Shown: positions 640-39,560 of the stretch, one piece after another
How positions within the stretch are numbered: the stretch's first letter is position 1
Layout: each line of letters begins with the position of its first letter
Source: Rhina ancylostomus
Taxonomy: Eukaryota
Direction of reading: 5' to 3'
DNA length: 64,000 nucleotides
Assembly: GCA_030265395.1 (NCBI GenBank)
Contig: JARFYF010000094.1
Coordinates: 70,950,866 to 71,014,865 of the forward strand
Program-made: the position numbers and the translations under genes
Notes under the pieces: model-generated
Databases searched by the model: none
The model's input: the letters and a program-made list of their open reading frames with translations, nothing else
What the model was told of the DNA's origin: nothing

Positions 640-1425
640 CTGCAAGTACACATCTAAATCTGGTTCAAATATGAAGGGGATTTCTGCTTTCTCATCCTTT
701 CAGACAGTGAGTTCCAATCACCAACCACATCCTGTGGGAAAGTATGTTGTTCCCCCATGTTCCTTTGTCAAATTACTTTACATCTATGCTCCCTGGTTTT
801 TAATATTCTACAAACACTTCGTCTATTTGGTCTATCACTTTATATCAACCTCACATAATTTTACACACTTCAATTAAGTCTCCCCTTGGTCTCCTCTGTT
901 CCAAAGAAAAGCAATCCTAGTTTATTTAGCCTTTCCACATTGCTACAATGTTCCAATCCTGCCCACATCCATGTAAATCTCCCACAGCCACTCCAATACA
1001 TTCATATCTTCCCTATAACTTGGAAACCAGAACTGAATGTAGTACACAAGCTGCATCCTAACCAATATTGTGTGAAGTTTTAGCACAGCCTCCATGTTTT
1101 TATATTCTATGCTTTGGCTAATAAAGGAAAATATCCTTTTGACCTTTCTAACCACTTTATTCACCTGTCTTGCTTCCTTTAAAGATCTATGAACATACAT
1201 TCCAAGTTTCCTCCATTCTACCACACAACTGACTATCCTCCCTTTTATTATACATTCCTGTGCCTTGTTGCAGTTCTCCAGATGCATTTCTTCACTCTTC
1301 TCAGGAGTAAATTCAATTTGCCATTTTCTGTCCAGTTGACCAAACCATCTAAATCTTCTTGCAATCCAATTCCTTGCTCTTCACTGTTGAACAAATGGCC
1401 ATTTGTTATATCATCTGCAAGTTTC
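640..1425 (-). mobile_element. Decayed CR1 LINE ORF2 3' fragment
   Basis: Minus ORF 943-1287 reads QVNKVVRKVKRIFSFISQSIEYKNMEAVLKLHTILVRMQLVYYIQFWFP, the CR1 post-RT region; boundaries approximate. Confidence 0.8.
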
Positions 1426-15204: not shown

Positions 15205-16339
15205 GTGAATAATTTTGCAGGAAAATAAATGGGGAAGTGGATTGCTCTGAGAGCCAAAATAGATTTGATTGGCCTCCTTCTAGGTTTACAAAAAAATCTG
15301 AAAAATTACATAAGCCCTACAATATCCCTCTACCCACTTCATACCAAGAAACTCTCCAATCTTCTGTTGCCCCATCACTGGCAGACAAGCCTTCAGATGC
15401 CCTAGTATGGTGCCCCTGAAATTCTCTCTCTAAAGCATTCATCACTTTTTCTACTTAATCTCTTCCTTAAGCCGTCTTTCTTTGACTAAGCTCCTCCTGA
15501 TCATTGGCTATGAACACCTATGTTGAACATCTGGTTTCACCCAGGGTTTCATACAATGTATGCTGTCTGCCAAGTAACAGTGCCCTCTGTTGGTGGTAAG
15601 TATTATATTTTGTCCTGAATTAAGTAATCTTGAAAAGAAAGTTGCTCCACTGACCAAAGACTTTTTTGGGATTTGTTTGATGGTTTAAAGATTTTAGTCA
15701 TGCTATTCCACTTAGGTTATATTTATTTAACAGGATGCATCATCCCATGAGCAATGTTGTTTTCTTAATGTACAAGTAGTAAAGCAAACTAATTTTTTCT
15801 TGTGACATAACCTGTATTGGATCATGCCATTACATTCTGTCTTTGATATAAATTTGATGGAGATAACTTTGAGATAAACTCTCTCTTTGAAGAGGCTACA
15901 CATGGCTTACATGGACCTTGAACTCAGTGTACAAAAATGACTGCAGCCACATGCAAGAAGAAAACTTTGTAATTTGTTATTTATCATCTTAAATTCTAAT
16001 GACTAAAAATTCATTCTCAGTCAGTTATGCTAAATGTGCTTTTAGTATGATAGCTCTGGAATTCATTCCATTGAAGTCAAGGGAATGAATATTAGAGGCT
16101 GACTACAACATACTGACATGACTGCATGGTTTATTTAGTGCTGCCAATTGAAGAGATGTTAGCTGTTGGTTCCTTATATATACAAATTCAAAATATGCAC
16201 TGCTAGTAAAGTTTTCACACTTTTAGTAATGCATTTATTAAATCCTATAATATAAAAATCTTAAAGATAAACTGTTCACAATCAATCCCTCTGACTATAT
16301 CTGTAGTAAATGGGGGCTTTCTTTTACAGTGTATTATTG

Positions 16340-16504
16340 TGTTACGTACCAGCAACAACAGAAACACACCGAGACACGTATAAGTGTTAACAACTACTTT
16401 ATTAATAACTACTTATGATAATAAGTAAAACAAAAGTAAAAATGTTAGAAATGTTAGAAGTAAAAATGTTAGGAACCTCACTAATTGTAACCTAGTCCGT
16501 AACA
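16340..16504. mobile_element. Short solo LTR (Gypsy-like) with 4-bp TSD
   Basis: TGTTACG…CGTAACA termini, flanked by ATTG at 16336-16339 and 16505-16508. Confidence 0.75.
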
Positions 16505-18214
16505 ATTGCACGTAATAAACTATATTTCACAAACTTCAAAGTTCCAACGGTAGATTAGGCAAGATTTGCTTCTCTGAGACAAAGGTTGGTCAAGTTAAAT
16601 CAGCCAAACTTTTGCTGGATTTAATCACTTAAAAATCTTTTTAAATGTGCAGTTCCCCAGTAAAAATTTTGTGGAAAGGAAAGACACTGTAAAAAAGACT
16701 GAAGACTGCAGCAGCATCAGATGAGCTGACCAATTGTGAAGGAGGAATGTACTCACTTCATTGACTTGTCAGGTAACCACAATTCCACTTTTTGACAATA
16801 TCTTCTTCTGAAGGACCAGTCAATGCAAAAAAAGAAGGCACTGCATAATTTTAGTGAGACCATCCTCCAAATCCTCTTCGAGAAAACTGAGCGGAGTGGG
16901 GAAACTGTTGGGTTTCCATAGAAGGAAACCACAAAGAAATATATCTTATACCAGATTAAGGAAGATGGTACTGACATTTAGTGATAATTCTCTCACTCTG
17001 TTCAGTGGCACAAGTTGCAAAGGCAGGTCAGATAATGTACTTGCTGCTCTCCTTTTTCTTCCTAGGGCAACAGGGTACATGTTACCTTTGAAAATCAAAA
17101 GCTATACCATTAATACTTCACACAGTATCTTGGTTAAGGAGATACCAGCTCAGGATCTTGCAATGTACAACTTTGCTTGATAGCAGTTACCTGCATGTAC
17201 GCACTTAAAAAGGTTATTGTCCACTAATGTGCCAGACCTTTTACATCAGCTGCCTTACATTTATCTGAAAATAGCCTGAATTGCCAGCCTTGACTTACCT
17301 CGCTCTTGCTTTGGAATCGAGCTGAACATAATGCAAGCTTGAAGTGAAGGGAGGGGTTGGTATTGTTACCTAAAATATGGAGCTATCTTCTATAAAGACC
17401 TCACCATGTTGGAGCAAAAATGATGGACAATAATTTGGGAGACAATTCCAAATTCGAGGTCTTTCTTCAGGAACTGGAATTTGCAAAGTTCAAAATAGCC
17501 CTGATTCTGAATTGAAACCTCATTTTGGCAATAATGATACTCAGTTGTGCATTCTTCCCTCTTTAAAAAACCTGTACTTCAAGACCTATTCAGACACTTG
17601 AGCTCAAAGTCCGAGCTAATAGTTCACTGAGGGTGAAGTATTGGGTACAAGTCAGCAGCAGCCAGGGCAGGGAGTCAAGATAATGTAGGTAACAGTGTAC
17701 CAGAGTGAGGTAGCAAACAAGTTCAACCACAATGGCAGCCTACCAATGAAGACCACTGGGTGTGCATGGCAACATTCTTGGCATATTTGGAAGCCTGTCA
17801 GGAAGCCTACAGTCATTGTCAAAAGGTATGGAGGAGTCCAACGTCTTGTAGGTTTTGCACATAACTTAGAACACATCCTTTCCAGGATGGTAGCCAGGTC
17901 CACTGGCACACTTATGGACTCAGTAATCTGCTGGTTAACATCACCATTGATGGTGGAATTTGCAGCCTTATCTTCCAGGCCTTAAGCTTCTCAAAGTCCA
18001 GCAAAACCATTAGTGATCACGTCCACTGAAGAAGAACTGCTATCTACTGGGCATGTTCCAGCCTCAGGGTTAGTAGGGCTGCAGAGAACCATCTTCTTGA
18101 AGAGAATGCAGAAGATTGATTAATTAATTGCATGCAGTAAAGTATGATTTAGTTCAGAATGGTTACTATATGAATTTTATATTTGCACTGTAGCCAAGCA
18201 AAGTGTATGATGGT

Positions 18215-18350
18215 GTGCTGTGGGACTTAAGGCTTTTGTAGCTCCTTCCCGATGGTAGCTGTAAGAAGATGGCAATGGCTCAGATGGTGGGTGTATTTGA
18301 TGATAGATGTTGCCTGCTTGAGACATCACCTCATGTAGATACTACCAATG
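18215..18350 (-). mobile_element. Rex1-type LINE 3' fragment
   Basis: Reverse complement aligns by eye to the Rex1 copy at ~39240-39355. Confidence 0.6.
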
Positions 18351-18359
18351 GTTTCCAAG

Positions 18360-19233
18360 TTTACTTTTGACACTCAGTTAAGTAAGATCAATATATAGAA
18401 GGGGATGTAAGGAGGCTTTGGGGAGGATAAGCTGAGTGAGTAGTGAACACATGGCAGATGGTATATAATGTGGAAAGATGGGAGGTCATCCATCTTGGTA
18501 TGCAAATCAGAAAAGTGCTTTGTAAATGGTGATAGATCGGGTAGTGTTGATGTTCAAAGGGATACAAAGTAGCAAAAGCCAACATGCATATGCAGCAAGT
18601 AATTTGGAAGGCAAATTGGATACTAGCCTTAATAAAGATAGGGTTTCAGTTCAAGAATAAGCAATGTACAATTGTAGAGAGCCTTGGTGAGACCATACCT
18701 GAAATATTGTGTACAGTTTTAGTTTCCTTACCTGAGAAAAGATATAATAGCCATAGAGGGAGTGGAGCAAAGATTGACTTCACTGGTTACAGAGATAATG
18801 AGTTTTCCATAAGGTTGCATAGACTAGGCCTAAATTCTCTAGAGTTTAGAAGAATAAGAGGGGATCTCGTTGAAACTTACAAAATTCTTAATCGGGCTTG
18901 GCAGGCAAGATGCAGGGAGAATGCTTCCTCTGGCTGAGGAGTCTATGATACAGAGTCACAATCTTGGAGAAAGGGCTGGGCTGTTTTGTCCTGTGGTGAA
19001 GGGAAATTTCTTCACTCAGAGATGGAGAAATGGAATTCTTTACTCCATTCCAGATGGCAGTTGTTGAGTTCATTCAAAACAGAGACAATAGATTTTTCAA
19101 TATAAGGGTATCAATATGGGGATAGTGAAAAAAATGACACATGGGTAAAAGGTCGACTGTGATCTCAACAAATTGTGGAATGGGCTTAAAGTTTTGGATA
19201 TCTTCTTCCTGCTCCTAATTATTATTATGTTAT
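18360..19233 (+). mobile_element. Decayed CR1 LINE 3' portion
   Basis: MQQVIWKANWILALIK…LHRLGLNSLEFRRIRGDLVETYKIL (ORF 18584); cctgctcctaatt…tatgttatg tail. Confidence 0.8.
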
Positions 19234-22083
19234 GGCTTGTCACAAGAGGCCAAATGTATAGGTAGCATAACAGACTGTGTTCATTTAAGGATGCTAGGTA
19301 CTTATTGGTCTCACATTAGCTGAAGAAGTGCAACATCCCCACTGACTCCTGGGAACCTCTGACCCATGACCACTCAAAGTGGAGAAGCTGAGTTCAGGAT
19401 GGTATTGAGGAACTCAAGGCCATTCATCAGGAGCACACAGAAGTCCTGCATAAGTGGCAGAAGGAATGTACTACCTCACAAGCTACTCATCTGCCCAGGC
19501 TGTCAGCCAGCTCCTTCCCCATCTGTGGAAGATGGTGATGTTCACAATTTGGCCTCATCAGCCACCCCAGAAGCTGCAAAGCTAGTAAGTCATCCTTGAT
19601 CCAGGGGGACTGCCTAAGAAGAACGCAACTACCGGCTAGAAAAATTCATGACCGCCCTCACTTTGGCCTGCCCTTCCTCTGCTCTGAAAATGCACTTGTA
19701 ACCACAGTGTATTACAGTAATGGGTTTCAATGAGGGTGTAGTTATTGAAGTGCAGGCACCTCACACATCGTTCCTCACTGAGGCTCAGGTAGGATAATTA
19801 ATCCCTAAGCACCGTGGACAGAAATACCCCTGTTGAGAACTCTTCTTTCTCCTCTTCCCACTGTTAGCAGCTTTCTGTGTTCTTTGTGCTCATTCTGCCA
19901 TTCATGCCGCATTCCAAGGGTAATGAATACCTACCAGTTCTCCCTCTCCCAGCAGCAGTCAGTTTATGCAAAAGACTTGAAGTCAGCAATTCAGTCAGTT
20001 AGTCCCAGAGCGGTGACTTTTGCAACTTGAAACAACAAAGGAAACTATTAGACTTGTAGCAAAAAACAGATTCCAGCATCTGTGGTCTCTTGTGTCCAGA
20101 CTTCTACAATTATATTAACAGATAGATGAAGTCACCCAGCAGCTACCTTTTAAATTGTTGATATTCCTTTCCTGATACTTAACCTGTATTCATCTCTGAA
20201 GCTAAAAGACAATGTAAGTGTTAAACTCCAAAAGGACAGTGCCAATGTCAAGTAAGTATTGCACACTGATTAACATCATCTATTCACAATGCATTCTTCT
20301 GGAGGACATTAACTACTGGTAATACCTTCACCAGTCTGGTGTATGTCAGGAATCATAGTGGAAGTTTTCACAGAGTGCATCAGATACCACCGAATGGCAT
20401 CAGAAGTGCCAAAACAACAGGTATTACTAATGTCCATTTCATGCCCTATTTGAATAATTCTGATTTGGTGTTTTAACTGTTAGAATGAAATTAAAATGTC
20501 TGACACAGCTAGAATGCAGTTTTTTGATTTATTTCATAAAATAATGCTTTTTGAACATCACACTCAAAGTTTGAAATTGTTGTTAACAAGTGAAAATCAT
20601 ATCAATTTGTCAGTTGTGCAGTAACATAACATGCAGGGTTCAACTTTTGAAGGGTCTAATTTGAATTTATAGTGAGAATTATTTATTGGTAGAGTTTTAA
20701 GGGGATATATCAGGCTTGTACAGAGACCTGCACTGCTGTTTATTTTGACGTTAGGATCCAGTAGGAGGTCAACAGCGGTAAGTGGGCAAGAGGCAGGTTA
20801 TCAATTGGGGGAGTTAAAATATTGGGAGGAATTTAAGGTTGAGGGCAACTGAGGCAGTAGAACAGGGTGTTGAATGTTGAATGGTGGCAGCAATTCCAAC
20901 GAAGGGTAAGGAGGATCTGATAACAGATATGGATAACATGCTGGCAGAATACAGCTGAATAATTGATTGAGGGGCCTTGGGCAGCATGCCCACAATTCAC
21001 ACCACATAAAGTACAAACCTGCCGAACCCAGCAACTTCCACTTCACATTACCCCCATGATTCCCAAGGCTTGGAAAATATTGTGGTCAATATTTAATTTA
21101 AATGACTGCCAAAGTATAAGGGGCATATTAACATATTACAAATATAACATAACATCAACCCACTCCTCCAGAAAGACTTCCTTGACACCTGAAATTTGCC
21201 ACAATTAAAATAGAAGGAGGCAGCTTTGTAGTTGTCACAAATTTCTGCATTGAACCATCCCCTCTCCAGATCTTCCAAGTCCAGTGTCTGTGGGAGGGGA
21301 ATAAAGGAGCAGGGAGGTACGAAAAAAAACTATTGTGTTTTCTCCACCAATCATGAAGTTGCTTTGATGGATAATCCTCATAATCTTTCAATGCATTTTG
21401 GTGGCTCTCCTAGCGTACATCAGCTTACTTTCAAGAATGATGTTTGCAGGTTACTTTTTCAGTGTATCATGCATTCAAGATACAACCTATTGAAAGTAAA
21501 AGCCTTGTGCATGATGCGTTTTTTCAAAACTAATAGAGCTTACATTTCTTCAGTCGAACAATTGGATCAGAGGTTTAACATTTCAATTAATTAACAACGA
21601 AGTAAGAGAATGTTTGAACTTTGAAAATCAACATCGCTTCTCAAACGTAAATAAATCATATATTTCAACTGCAAAATTACAAACTAATTTCAAATTTAGT
21701 GGAGGTGATTTTTTTTTAAAAATGCAAGTATCAAAATTTATAAATGCAAGTTTTTGAAATAGTTATTAATGATGCTACATGGCAAAATAAACTAGAAAGC
21801 AGCAAATATACATTCTTAATTAACCAGATACTTAATTTTAGTCGATTCCTTTCTGAGAACACTGATTTCTTCCACATTTTGTGCCTTATATTTTCTGATT
21901 GCCAAGTATCGGCATTCCTGTATTTCTATTCCGCTCTTTCAGTTCCACTGTAAACTTTTGCAACTGTAAAAGAAATTTGCTAGTTTATCACTTTTTCACC
22001 TAAATTGTCTTAGTTATATAGCAAAACAATTGTTTTTATAAGGTAACTAATGGAAATTTTCCTACTTCACATTTTGTAGATAT

Positions 22084-22422
22084 TTATAAAATACTTTCTT
22101 CTTCAAAGTCAAACTTAAATGCAGATCCACTTTGGAAAAGAGATCCATTTTTGCTTTCTTTGCCATTCATAAATTCTTCATAAGGATCTGCTTGGGATTT
22201 CTTTTTCTTTGCTCGCAGATGCCCCAGAAACACAATAAATGCCAGGAATGAGTAGAAGAACATCACGAAGAGGACAAAAAAGTAGGCATTTTCATCGGAT
22301 TTCTGCAGATTTCCCATGGAAGCAGTTGCATTCAGCTGTGATCCATCTGTTTTTCCCAAAGATTCCTTTAAAACCTTTCCAATACATGAATTGAAAAGCG
22401 AAATTAAAGTAGTTGTGTTCAT
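22084..22422 (-). CDS. KCNE-family voltage-gated K+ channel single-pass beta subunit, 112 aa (KCNE3/KCNE6-like)
   Basis: Uninterrupted ORF from ATG at 22422 (context ACCAAG-ATG, A at -3). N-glycosylation sequons N2-T-T and N31-A-T; one TM segment AYFFVLFVMFFYSFLAFIVFLG; basic stop-transfer RAKKKK and DPY motif matching the KCNE pattern (KCNE3: DDNSYMYILFVMFLF…LGYTRSRKVDKRSDPY). A single coding exon is typical of the family. Confidence 0.9.
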   Translation of the reverse strand: MNTTTLISLFNSCIGKVLKESLGKTDGSQLNATASMGNLQKSDENAYFFVLFVMFFYSFLAFIVFLGHLRAKKKKSQADPYEEFMNGKESKNGSLFQSGSAFKFDFEEESIL

Positions 22423-24167
22423 CTTGGTGCCGCTCAGAAAAGTTGTGTGCGCTCTCAAAACAAGCACGTGGACTCGCATCCAAAGATAACTGAATTCTAG
22501 ATTTGGTAAGGAATGCTGCTCCTTCACTTACTGCAGAGGCCTAATGATAACGCAACATATTTTAGATAATGCATTCTATGTTGGAGTGTAAACTTTTGGA
22601 TATATCTTTTTGAAACATTAACAGAAGCAGCATTTCCAAATTTAGGATCAGTGCAAAACCCCAATCCATCCATGAAAAGGTGACAAAGTGATAACCTCAC
22701 AGGTCTCTGCTACTGTCGATTTGTAGTTGGTTGAAGGAGGTGTGGGAGAGCAGCTTCAAGTGGTTTGGCCTTTGACCTTAATTCCTCAAGGGAACTAGCT
22801 AACCTCTGCTTTGCTGTGATTGTGGACCTTGCCTCTATTGATATTAACACAAAAAGTTCATATCCTGTACCATCATAGTGTAGCACCAACATTATTGGGC
22901 TGCCTTTAAGTGCCAAATTAATGATATCTCGACACCACAAAAAGGTCTATTAATGCAAATGGACATTTACAGTATTTCAAAAAATGTGATTATTAATCAC
23001 AGTAAAAATAATCATTTAAACTAGTTTAATATGAACAAATTTTTGTTAATGAATTATTACCTACACACTGTGCACTGTCAGTGATATATACAGTATGAAA
23101 ATATATCAATATTTATCATTTAATTCTAGGTAATTCTTTCATAAGGCCAAAATACAGCTCCTCACTGCAAAAGACATGTGAGTGACACCAGTTAAGAGGT
23201 ATTCCCAAGTGTATCACAGTAAAGTGTATCACAAGTATTACCACCCTACAATTCATGATTATAATTACAGTAAATATGATTTAGATTTAACATAATCATT
23301 ATAAACCCACAGTTAAGTAATACAGTATGTCTGTAATTGTGACAGTCCGATATTCCATGTCTATATACATACTTGGAAAACTCAGATTTGCAGTCCATTT
23401 TGCAATGTTTCCAACATTAAGCCTCCCCCTTTGAGTGAAATTAAACTAAAAATATACAACTTCTTTCTTCATTCATTTGCACTTATGTACTTGCTTTGAT
23501 CTAATTTACTTCATTTTTCTAAAGCTTTCTTACAATCTTTAAGGCACTATAATCATTTCCCCAAATCTTCAAACCCCTTTCCAATGCTGAATCTGTTGAG
23601 GATGTTTGTGTTTTAGAAATATTTGTCTGAAGGAGTACTCTTAAGTAATCTGACCAAGCAAAGTAAACTCATAATATGCATTATGTGCAAGGATATCAAA
23701 TATAGTTTTGAAACTGTCAGGTATTAATTTTATATTAGAAATTCCTATGATTGTTGGAATTTGAACCTCTGCTTGTGAACCTGCCCAGAAAGGGTGCAAG
23801 TTGTGAACTTGAGCACACAAGAGTTATGCGCCTATGCCTAGTTTGCTGTCACTTCAAGAGTGCATCATGGANNNNNNNNNNNNNNNNNNNNNNNNNNNNN
23901 NNNNNNNNNNNNNNNNNNNNNNNNNNNNNNNNNNNNNNNNNNNNNNNNNNNNNNNNNNNNNNNNNNNNNNNNNNNNNNNNNNNNNNNNNNNNNNNNNNNN
24001 NNNNNNNNNNNNNNNNNNNNNNNNNNNNNNNNNNNNNNNNNNNNNNNNNNNNNNNNNNNNNNNNNNNNNNNNNNNNNNNNNNNNNNNNNNNNNNNNNNNN
24101 NNNNNNNNNNNNNNNNNNNNNNNNNNNNNNNNNNNNNNNNNNNNNNNNNNNNNNNNNNNNGGTATCA

Positions 24168-32764: not shown

Positions 32765-33030
32765 TAATTTTCATCTACATAGCACCTTTCACCCATTGAA
32801 CATTTCACAAAATGTTTCATAAACAGACTTGTTGTTTTGGAATCATTGCTCCTATGAACAACAACTTTATCAGTCAATTTGCACACCTAAAATGAGCAGC
32901 CCAGTTTTGGTGATGTTCATTTGGTGCATAAACATTGGCTAGGAAATTAGAGAATAATTGTACTTCTTAAAAGAGTGGCACTGAAACGTTTGCATCTACC
33001 TGAACAGGCAAATATGGTCACGGTTTGAGA
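32765..33030 (-). mobile_element. Decayed DeuSINE
   Basis: catctacatagcacctttcac…caatttgcacac…ttggtgatgttc…catctacctgaacaggc is the reverse complement of the DeuSINE tail and body. Confidence 0.55.
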
Positions 33031-34612
33031 TCAGAACCACTAAGGTTCAACTATATAGTTGTCCCTCACTTAAATTTCCTCTTTTTATCCCACAGACACC
33101 ACCCCACCTCCACAACCATCCAGCCTAACTTTTTCAGGGTCTGGAGGCTAGCCAGGCCAACTGATCATGTCCAACAGGTGACACTCATTATCTGAGCTCA
33201 TAAGTATAGATTGTAGCTGACTGACAATCAAGAAGTGATAAGTTCCTCTACTCCAACATGTCTTCAAGTGTTAAAAAGAGTTAATGAGTACAGAACAAAC
33301 CATCAGTAACTATATTCAGATTGCTAACCACAATATGGCAGAAAATGTTTTGAAATAAACAACTTTTAAATTTAAGTTGCCTTGTCAAACTAACCAGATA
33401 ACTCATACTATGTCCAAACAGATTTGATTTCTTACCCAATTAGTTTAATATCGTTGTTTATTTTCTCCTTATTTATGCATTCTGTTTCTTTTCCCTTTTT
33501 CCTTGTTTAACTATATGTTCCTCTTTCTTGTGTAATGGGACAGAATAACATTGCTATGATAATAAATTAAATAATTTATCTTACCAGCATCAACAGTCCA
33601 TTCTGCACTGTGATGTTGTACTGTCAAGAAATTAACTGCAAGAGAGTGCACCCAGTGTGATAACCATCTGTAGGTGAAAGAAACTTCAGAAAACTGAACT
33701 TTGGGATACTCAGCAATGAGATTTCAAATGGTGAAGAGAGCTGTAAACTTTTCTTTAGAGATCAGTGAAAACCAATGGAAATAATTCCAAACTGTAAGTA
33801 ATTCTAGCAGAGGAAATCATATTTTAAAAAAACAAGGAAACTAATCTAATGCTCATGTTAGGAGAAGGCAAACACAAACCACCCCATTCCCAATTCTGTC
33901 TGCATATTTGGCCACTAAATCCATCATCAGAAGGGATTAATCAACAACTCTATATGAACACATAAAAGGAAGTCCACTGATTATCTTTGCTGACTTTTAT
34001 AAAAAAGCTATTAGCAGATATTGTTCTTAATAGCACAAGAGTTTTTGCATGATTACTCAATAATTTTAGCAGTGCAACACCTGACCACATGGTGGCAGGA
34101 TTTGGCAACATGATACCAATATATTCAGGTTCTGCCAACAGAAGAACACAAACAACTGTGTGGATCCCAGATTTTGTGCAGTATATGTTGCAGACTTAAA
34201 ACTTTATGATAATATCCAATTATATATGGTAAGCCTCAAAGGTTTTAACATTCTGATTGCTCAATGTAACTGCGATGTAACAGAACAGTTCAGCTTGAAT
34301 ATATTTAACCACTACAATCATCTTTTTTCCCATTATTCACTGATGCTATCTGCATTTTTCAGCCTTCTTCACATATTCAAGATTAGTGATACACACTCGA
34401 ACATTGTTTGTTATCTTAATCCTAATTGTGATCAGGAATATGAACTGCAACTAATTTAGCATATTATGGTTATCAATTTTCAATTACTATATTGATTTTT
34501 TCCCTACTCCAACCATGATTCTATATATAGCACTATGATTACTGATCACTCTTGAAAAATAAACACTTGGATGGGATAGCTTGACTCTCATGGGGAAGTT
34601 TGCAAAAGATGT

Positions 34613-38500: not shown

Positions 38501-39054
38501 TTATACTGGAAAGTTAAAATTGTAGTTGATAACAATTTATGTCAATTTAGAAGAATTAATTCTGACCACAAGTAGTACATTGGTTCAATCTGTGATTTCA
38601 AAATCTAATGGCAAAAATGAACCAGAAAATAAAACAGATGTACAGAGTTGTGTGAAACTGAGGAACGTAACAAGTAACATCACCACTGAAGAAAACCTCA
38701 ACACTTGCCATTTTCTGATAACAAAAATTTAAACTTTATTTATCCAGCACAGTAACAGGCCCCTCCAGCGCAACGAGCCCACACCACCCAATTACACCCA
38801 TGTTAACCTACTAACCCGCATGTCTTTGGAACTTGGTCTTACTGATTCTGCAGTCCTCTCTTTGTAATTTATTTCTCTTAATGGCAGCAATAGTTGACAA
38901 ACATGACAATGCAGTATATATTATCAGATATATTACCAGTTATTTTCCTGATGTTCTTTATGGCTTATCGTAGGGAATTTTGCTAACCTTTTGATGCTTT
39001 GTAGCTAAGCTGTAAATTTCCATTACAAAAATAATAGAAATTATTCAGACATTT

Positions 39055-39560
39055 ATTTGAAGAGATTTGGTGTGCCACCAAAGACCCTTGCAAATTTCTA
39101 CAGATGTATGGTGGAGAGCATTCTGATTGGTTGCATCACCGCCTGGTATGGAGGCTCCAATGGGCAGGATTGAAAGAGGCTATAGAGGGTTGTAGACTCA
39201 ACCAGCTCCAACTCTCCTCACCATTGACGACATCTTCAAGAGACTATGCCTCAAGAAGGCAGCATCCATCATTAAGGACCCTCACCACCTGGGACATGCC
39301 CTCTTCACATTGTTACCATCGGGGAGGTGGTACAGGAGCCTGAAGACCCACACTCGATGTTTCAGGAACAGCTTCTTCCCCTCCACCATCATTTTCTGAA
39401 TGGTCTATGAACCCATAAACATCACCTTGTTATTCGTCTGTTCTATTATTTATTTATTTTGTGACTTAACGGCGATTTTTAAGTTTTGCACTGTACTGCT
39501 ACCACAAAACAACAAATTTCATGACATGTGTCAGTGATAATAAACCTATTCTAATTCTGA
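39055..39560 (+). mobile_element. Rex1-type LINE 3' portion
   Basis: NFYRCMVESILIGCITAWYG…CLKKAASIIKDPHHLGHALFTLLPSGRWYRSL; AATAAA plus ATTCT-type tail. Confidence 0.85.

Follow-up and report, generated by a model that had tools for sequence, protein, structure and literature searches.

A 64,000-nucleotide stretch of Rhina ancylostomus DNA (hereafter the window) carries a gene with a single coding exon that is almost certainly the elasmobranch orthologue of KCNE6, as judged from synteny and sequence together. The gene itself is already known, and what is added here is its occurrence in an older lineage. We assign a probability of about 0.75 to the joint reading that it is a KCNE6 orthologue and that its product acts on KCNQ1 in the manner of KCNE1.

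Coding Sequence and Predicted Protein

The KCNE6 coding sequence occupies positions 22084..22422 of the reverse strand as one coding exon, from ATG to TAA, and the translated 112-aa frame contains no internal stops. Initiation at another in-frame ATG, at 22479, would lengthen the protein by 19 aa to a 131-aa form. We disfavor this longer form on the basis of start context (position −3 is A for the ATG at 22422 and T for that at 22479) and of orthologue starts, the start Met of three named shark orthologues being the one that corresponds to 22422.

The predicted protein contains a single hydrophobic segment at residues 48–66, with a 19-residue Kyte-Doolittle peak of 2.76, which we take as the transmembrane helix (22225..22281; this and the following features are on the reverse strand). 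The helix includes the triplet L60-A61-F62 and F65. Sequons at N2 and N31 precede it, and a third, N92, falls on the cytoplasmic side. The N-terminal segment, residues 1–20 (22363..22422), is conserved; its N2 sequon and Cys13 are invariant in 18/18 rows of alignment A1 and in 34/34 rows of the bony-vertebrate alignment A2. Just before the helix, the acidic pair D43/E44 (22291..22296) aligns to D54/D55 of KCNE3. The helix is followed by a cytoplasmic basic run and a DPYEEF motif (residues 70–85, 22168..22215), in which DPY occupies residues 79–81 and D79 aligns to KCNE3 D90. The protein ends in an acidic segment, FDFEEE plus three residues (22087..22116), a pattern that closes 28 of the 34 bony-vertebrate rows in A2. 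The 112-aa protein lacks a tetraleucine (LLLL) and has only ∼45 cytoplasmic residues. These observations agree with the first-pass annotation, which had described an intact 112-aa single-pass frame with two N-terminal sequons, a KCNE-type helix, and a basic run followed by DPY, and had noted the absence of the tetraleucine and long tail of KCNE4.

The same annotation had proposed a search against the Pfam ISK_Channel profile, PF02060, which scores the protein at 28.0 bits (E 1.9e-6) against a cut-off of 22.1 bits, and the top ESM Atlas cluster is likewise KCNE (0.96). Among the 150 longest of the 656 stop-free segments of at least 40 aa in the window, this is the sole segment that passes any Pfam cut-off. 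A profile of the KCNE6 group (described below) finds no second KCNE copy among the 2063 six-frame segments of the window, where the next best match has an E value of 0.48.

Relatives and Orthology

A search with the window protein returned 51 candidates, 48 of them relatives at E ≤ 0.001, which range from sharks to marsupials and teleosts; the earlier description of the gene as an orphan is not borne out. Sharks match at 77–78% in this search, and a separate comparison with three named ones (Chiloscyllium, Carcharodon, and Scyliorhinus) gives 77–84%; identity is 44–50% to marsupial, frog, sturgeon, and bichir relatives, and ∼32–53% to teleost relatives. The three shark orthologues are already in databases, labeled "KCNE3-like" or hypothetical; that of Carcharodon carcharias (P0003) is filed under the former name. 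We note that the C-terminus of P0003 diverges past the near-final motif and adds 24 residues relative to the window protein, which may reflect a model error or a lineage change. Bird, reptile, amphibian, and fish orthologues carry the names KCNE3, KCNE4, Pax-3, or uncharacterized, and none of the names among the matches listed contains "member 6". The expectation that small single-exon genes of this kind are often missed by annotation thus stands only in part, since the gene is often predicted and it is the name that goes astray. A precomputed PF02060 match is missing in many teleost copies.

Searching 1.84 billion representatives with a profile yielded 93 matches, of which 48 score at least 67.7 bits; a gap down to 48.5 bits follows, and the 45 weaker matches are unnamed. 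The KCNE6-group profile was built from 34 named bony-vertebrate members and no shark. It matches the window protein over residues 1–112 at 119.5 bits and the three other sharks at 113–120 bits, against 40.7 bits for KCNE3, 28.2 for KCNE2, and 26.7 for KCNE1 (these three were scored from PDB matches, among which KCNE4 and KCNE5 are absent). The highest score for 1000 shuffles is 7.5 bits (966 reported). The group score is partly circular because the members were collected as relatives of the window protein. In a 27-row tree, made from the window protein and 26 named ones, the sharks with the window protein (100/99), the teleosts (100/99), and the tetrapods (99/96) each form a supported clade. 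This tree holds KCNE6-group rows and no KCNE1–5 outgroup and is therefore not a test of paralogy.

The group was tied to the published KCNE6 sequences by visual comparison and by length, and also by two bird gene models taken up below. At 104 aa, Xenopus tropicalis P0009 has the length expected from the published 315 bp (PMC11659587). A carp protein, P0018, which is mislabeled at source as "Paired box Pax-3", resembles the printed zebrafish KCNE6 by eye at its start, helix, and end, and a pre-helix motif is common to the printed human KCNE6 remnant and Tasmanian devil P0006. Conservation is highest in the helix and at both ends and collapses in the loops: the window protein agrees with P0006 at 21/28 positions in the helix region and at 3/15 positions in residues 86–100.

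Linkage to PAX3

The far end of the window holds the 3′ end of PAX3 on the reverse strand. The penultimate coding exon (63802..64000, cut by the window edge, with a GT donor at 63801) matches named PAX3 proteins at 83–89% among the best 120 of 333 matches. The last coding exon (61942..61976) has an AG acceptor at 61978–61977 and contributes ten codons after a split Ser, followed by TGA; its peptide recurs in the bird PAX3 model P0138. KCNE6 therefore lies on the 3′ side of PAX3 on the same strand, 39.5 kb from the PAX3 stop to the KCNE6 ATG and 37.7 kb from the candidate PAX3 poly(A) signal to that ATG, distances for which the figure of ∼38 kb given earlier holds. The first-pass annotation had left the position of the KCNE6 locus unconfirmed; KCNE6 adjoins PAX3 in 10/10 bony vertebrates shown in Supplementary Figure 5 of PMC11659587, with gaps of 6.7–32.5 kb as extracted from the PDF text of that source. 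The order and strand seen in the window are also shown independently by two bird gene models, P0069 and P0138, in which PAX3 exons run in frame into a KCNE6 frame on one strand; their KCNE6 parts share 50% and 46% identity with the window protein. The fused models themselves are most likely gene-prediction artifacts.

Beyond the PAX3 penultimate exon, the same reading frame continues through 35 intronic codons without a stop (63698–63801, reverse strand). The cluster representative P0051 terminates in the peptide of this stretch, which suggests an intron-retaining PAX3 isoform predicted in the lineage. In human, KCNE4 is presumably also on the PAX3 chromosome arm, placed on the other side of PAX3.

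The intact reading frame, the KCNE-family match, the KCNE6-group match, and the synteny with PAX3 are direct observations on the window gene, and of the two options offered by the first-pass annotation, they favor a chondrichthyan KCNE6 orthologue, which draws support from the synteny and from the score of 119.5 bits against 40.7 for KCNE3. An unnamed or new paralogue is opposed by the PAX3-linked locus of published KCNE6 and by the profile gap between 67.7 and 48.5 bits. A new paralogue or orphan was rejected on synteny, profile scores, and this gap, and shark KCNE3 or KCNE4 on interface residues, tail, and score.

Upstream Region and Remainder of the Window

The 400 bp upstream of the ATG (22423..22822, no strand assigned) form a candidate proximal regulatory region with four GATA, one NKX2-5-like, and two TBX5-like motifs and no MEF2 motif. 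In dinucleotide shuffles of this stretch, 1/5000 reached at least 3/1/1 of the three motifs, in that order, and 21/5000 reached 1/1/1. A second cluster, at 32851–33550, ∼10 kb upstream of KCNE6, satisfies the identical rule, which is met by 8 of 1143 overlapping windows across the 64 kb, corresponding to these two loci; the distal cluster is possibly an enhancer or chance. The motifs are consensus sequences picked after seeing the sequence, and the second locus exists, so we treat the proximal cluster as a lead for heart expression, suggestive only, and not as evidence. The window contains 13 runs of N totaling 2981 bases, one of which (23872–24160, ∼1.45 kb upstream of the ATG) could hide a 5′ exon or promoter element.

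The surroundings had been described as otherwise made of dead repeats, and our partial check found one sub-threshold RVT_1 fragment at 2254–2559 on the forward strand, of decayed LINE type, and within-window repeats covering 2474 of 64000 bases, none of them in 16001–24000. Segments at 946–1380 (reverse strand) and 1587–1910, 18551–18934, and 39038–39340 (forward strand) we take, by resemblance, to be further decayed LINE-type fragments. Three short tandem arrays are present, none near KCNE6. Rfam gives no matches in the window, and a noncoding RNA reading was rejected. A boundary between EPHA4 and PAX3 with CTCF is described in mouse (PMC9279147). The window holds eight matches to a CTCF consensus against 5.64 ± 2.43 expected, and 18/100 shuffles are as high, so this chance-level count lends no support to a boundary cluster, and we rejected it. 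One-mismatch matches to this consensus occur at 15580–15593 and 18037–18050 (reverse strand), on the EPHA4 side of KCNE6.

Proposed Function and Alternatives

We propose that elasmobranch KCNE6 would be a single-pass, N-glycosylated auxiliary subunit with its N-terminus outside, whose helix would pack on the S1/voltage-sensor face of KCNQ1 (Kv7.1). In this model, KCNE6 would slow KCNQ1 activation and move it to more positive voltages, giving an IKs-like repolarizing current, most likely in heart muscle, and it may additionally modulate Kv4. That the gene is transcribed, in which tissue, with which partner its product works, and which way gating shifts are points that we infer here by analogy with orthologues. 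Binding to KCNQ1 with a slow, positively shifted, IKs-like current is the most likely action of the window protein, because of the behavior of its orthologues and because it has bulky residues at the positions of KCNE3 G73 and I76. KCNE6 of koala, chicken, anole, frog, coelacanth, and zebrafish all moved human KCNQ1 positive (PMC11659587). The same source reports that 3.5 kb of upstream DNA drives heart expression of zebrafish kcne6, that zebrafish KCNE6 requires both termini, and that it alters Kv4.2 and Kv4.3 kinetics and leaves a hERG-like channel unchanged; heart is probably the tissue of the elasmobranch gene as well.

At the S1 interface, KCNE3 S57, I61, M65, A69, G73, and I76 correspond to window A46, V50, M54, S58, F62, and F65 (numbering transferred by alignment, offset +11). 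Conductance at −100 mV for KCNE3 mutants is reported as 0.11 for I76F, 0.43 for G73F, and 0.77 for G73A (PMC9671499). With Phe at both the G73 and I76 positions, the shark helix should therefore not hold KCNQ1 open, an expectation that borrows from mutants of another protein. Against a simple transfer from the tested orthologues, sharks depart from them at D43, H68, and A71 and carry LAF in 3/4 cases, and KCNE effects can hinge on species-matched KCNQ1 pairing (lamprey preprint, bioRxiv 10.64898/2026.04.28.721385).

The departure at D43 bears on an unlikely but instructive alternative, in which the gene is KCNE6 by descent and KCNE3-like in sharks. Here D43/E44 would help keep the KCNQ1 voltage sensor up, and the resulting current, constitutive or shifted to negative voltages, would serve K+ recycling across epithelia such as that of the rectal gland, with KCNE1-like behavior arising later, within bony vertebrates. 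The pair is acidic-acidic in 4/4 shark rows (window included) and Tyr-Asp in 33/34 bony-vertebrate rows; it aligns to KCNE3 D54/D55, two residues with a reported role in constitutive activation (PMC7324551, PMC9671499). Lamprey KCNE0 gives a constitutive current (bioRxiv 10.64898/2026.04.28.721385), and the reference list of one review includes a title on KCNQ1 from dogfish rectal gland. Taken together, the acidic pair, the role of D54/D55, and KCNE0 imply that shark KCNE6 could exceed the tested copies in KCNE3-likeness. However, bulky residues at G73 and I76 lessen constitutive KCNE3 opening, and the cryo-EM structure places D54/D55 well away from S1 and S4 (both PMC9671499); F65 is also present in 33/34 bony-vertebrate rows, and the upstream motifs point weakly to heart. 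It is doubtful that shark KCNE6 is a functional intermediate, with the acidic pair of KCNE3 on a bulky KCNE6-type helix. Were it so, shark KCNQ1 (or Kv7.1L) would be opened or negatively shifted rather than slowed, a single Asp-to-Tyr change at the root of the bony vertebrates would mark a switch from KCNE3-like to KCNE1-like action, and the two forms would offer a natural comparison for the long-standing puzzle of why KCNE1 and KCNE3 act in opposite ways. A different main native partner, either Kv7.1L or Kv4, is harder still to credit. Kv7.1L is a KCNQ1 ohnologue that all mammals have lost but that occurs widely among jawed vertebrates, and KCNE1 modulates it (bioRxiv 2025.09.21.677649); zebrafish KCNE6 acts on Kv4.2 and Kv4.3 as noted above; yet KCNE6 is reported intact and active in marsupials, though all mammals are without Kv7.1L, so the losses of KCNE6 and Kv7.1L do not coincide.

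The remaining alternatives concern the identity of the gene and its integrity. We consider it very improbable that the gene is instead shark KCNE3 or a distinct paralogue, either shark-specific or unnamed. The Carcharodon orthologue bears the name "KCNE3-like", KCNE3 is the best solved-structure match, and a long branch (0.7) leads to the shark clade in the 27-row unrooted tree; set against these are a PAX3-linked position identical to that of published KCNE6, an end-to-end match to the KCNE6 group that includes both termini at ∼3 times the KCNE3 score, the single supported clades of sharks, teleosts, and tetrapods, and the presence of just one such segment among those searched in the window. 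We give scarcely any credence to the idea that the gene is a pseudogene, silent or in decay, like that of placental mammals. The changed C-terminus of one named shark model out of three, and a distance as long as ∼1.3 kb to the first downstream AATAAA on the coding strand, could be read in its favor, but the frame is open at full length with both of the termini that zebrafish KCNE6 requires (PMC11659587), identity to the three other sharks is 77–84%, and the helix region is more conserved than the loops. An intact KCNE6 with KCNE1-like action on KCNQ1 is the reading that we carry forward.

Significance

The words "shark", "cartilaginous", and "chondrichth" have no mentions in the main text of PMC11659587 or in four of its five supplement files (the fifth is without text), and none in the main text of the lamprey preprint (bioRxiv 10.64898/2026.04.28.721385). 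We found nothing on shark KCNE6 in the accessible parts of PMC10991444, PMC5041087, PMC13054283, and PMC11000733, nothing relevant on shark IKs among the matches listed, and no paper on KCNE6 in cartilaginous fish in the literature searched, which leaves most subscription journals outside it. The presence of KCNE6 in elasmobranchs is expected, and not surprising, to a specialist.

An elasmobranch orthologue implies that KCNE6 dates at least to the ancestor of jawed vertebrates, moving the origin of the gene and of its linkage to PAX3 back from bony vertebrates to at least that common ancestor and bridging the interval that separates lamprey KCNE0 from the bony-vertebrate genes published so far. 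Database names can be corrected as well, for the shark sequences and many other orthologues now filed as KCNE3-like, KCNE4, Pax-3, or hypothetical. Two features specific to sharks, D43/E44 and LAF, offer a cheap natural test for the residues that set the direction of KCNQ1 modulation.

Comparison with Known KCNE Systems

Lamprey KCNE0 resembles the window gene in being a KCNE of an early-branching vertebrate (bioRxiv 10.64898/2026.04.28.721385). As described there, it differs in lying near rab20 rather than PAX3, in its longer tail, and in its constitutive current, and we set it apart on this description. KCNE4 (MiRP3) shares the KCNE family and lends its name to some database KCNE6 orthologues; the juxtamembrane tetraleucine and long cytoplasmic tail that the lamprey preprint describes for it are absent here. 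KCNE1 (minK) likewise fills the first and third triplet positions with bulky residues, FTL against LAF, and is predicted to share with the window protein slow activation and a positive KCNQ1 shift, whereas its sequence match is weak (18.7 bits, E 0.016, and 26.7 bits on the KCNE6-group profile).

KCNE3 (MiRP2) is the best solved-structure match to the window protein (33 bits, E 5e-7), with likeness in the helix start, the DPY, and the extracellular acidic pair, D54/D55 having its counterpart in D43/E44. The match is confined to residues 36–89 of the window protein, and KCNE3 scores 40.7 bits against 119.5 on the KCNE6-group profile. The KCNE3 signature at the S1 interface, a TVG triplet with small G73 and Ile76, is not found in the window protein, where L60-A61-F62 replaces T71-V72-G73, F65 replaces I76, and, further on, A71 replaces S82. 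KCNE3 is also without the long acidic tail, its chains stopping shortly past DPY.

KCNE6 itself was described in 2024 (Kasuya et al.) from bony vertebrates, with cartilaginous fish outside the sampling, and is lost in placental mammals (PMC11659587). The window gene differs from it in a wider PAX3 gap (37.7–39.5 kb against 6.7–32.5 kb), in D43 in place of Tyr, in H68 and A71 after the helix, and in a triplet that reads LAF instead of LAL or MAL. LAF is found in the window, Chiloscyllium, and Carcharodon, LAL in Scyliorhinus, and Phe in 1/34 bony-vertebrate rows; the KCNE6 paper describes the LAL/MAL triplet without defining the gene by it (PMC11659587). The likeness extends over the whole gene: a small reading frame beside PAX3 (112 aa here, 104–122 aa in published functional forms), an N-terminal sequon and Cys, the helix core LFVM(F/L)FYSFLA, DPYEEF, and an acidic C-terminal end, with KCNE3 the nearest in sequence among KCNE1–3.
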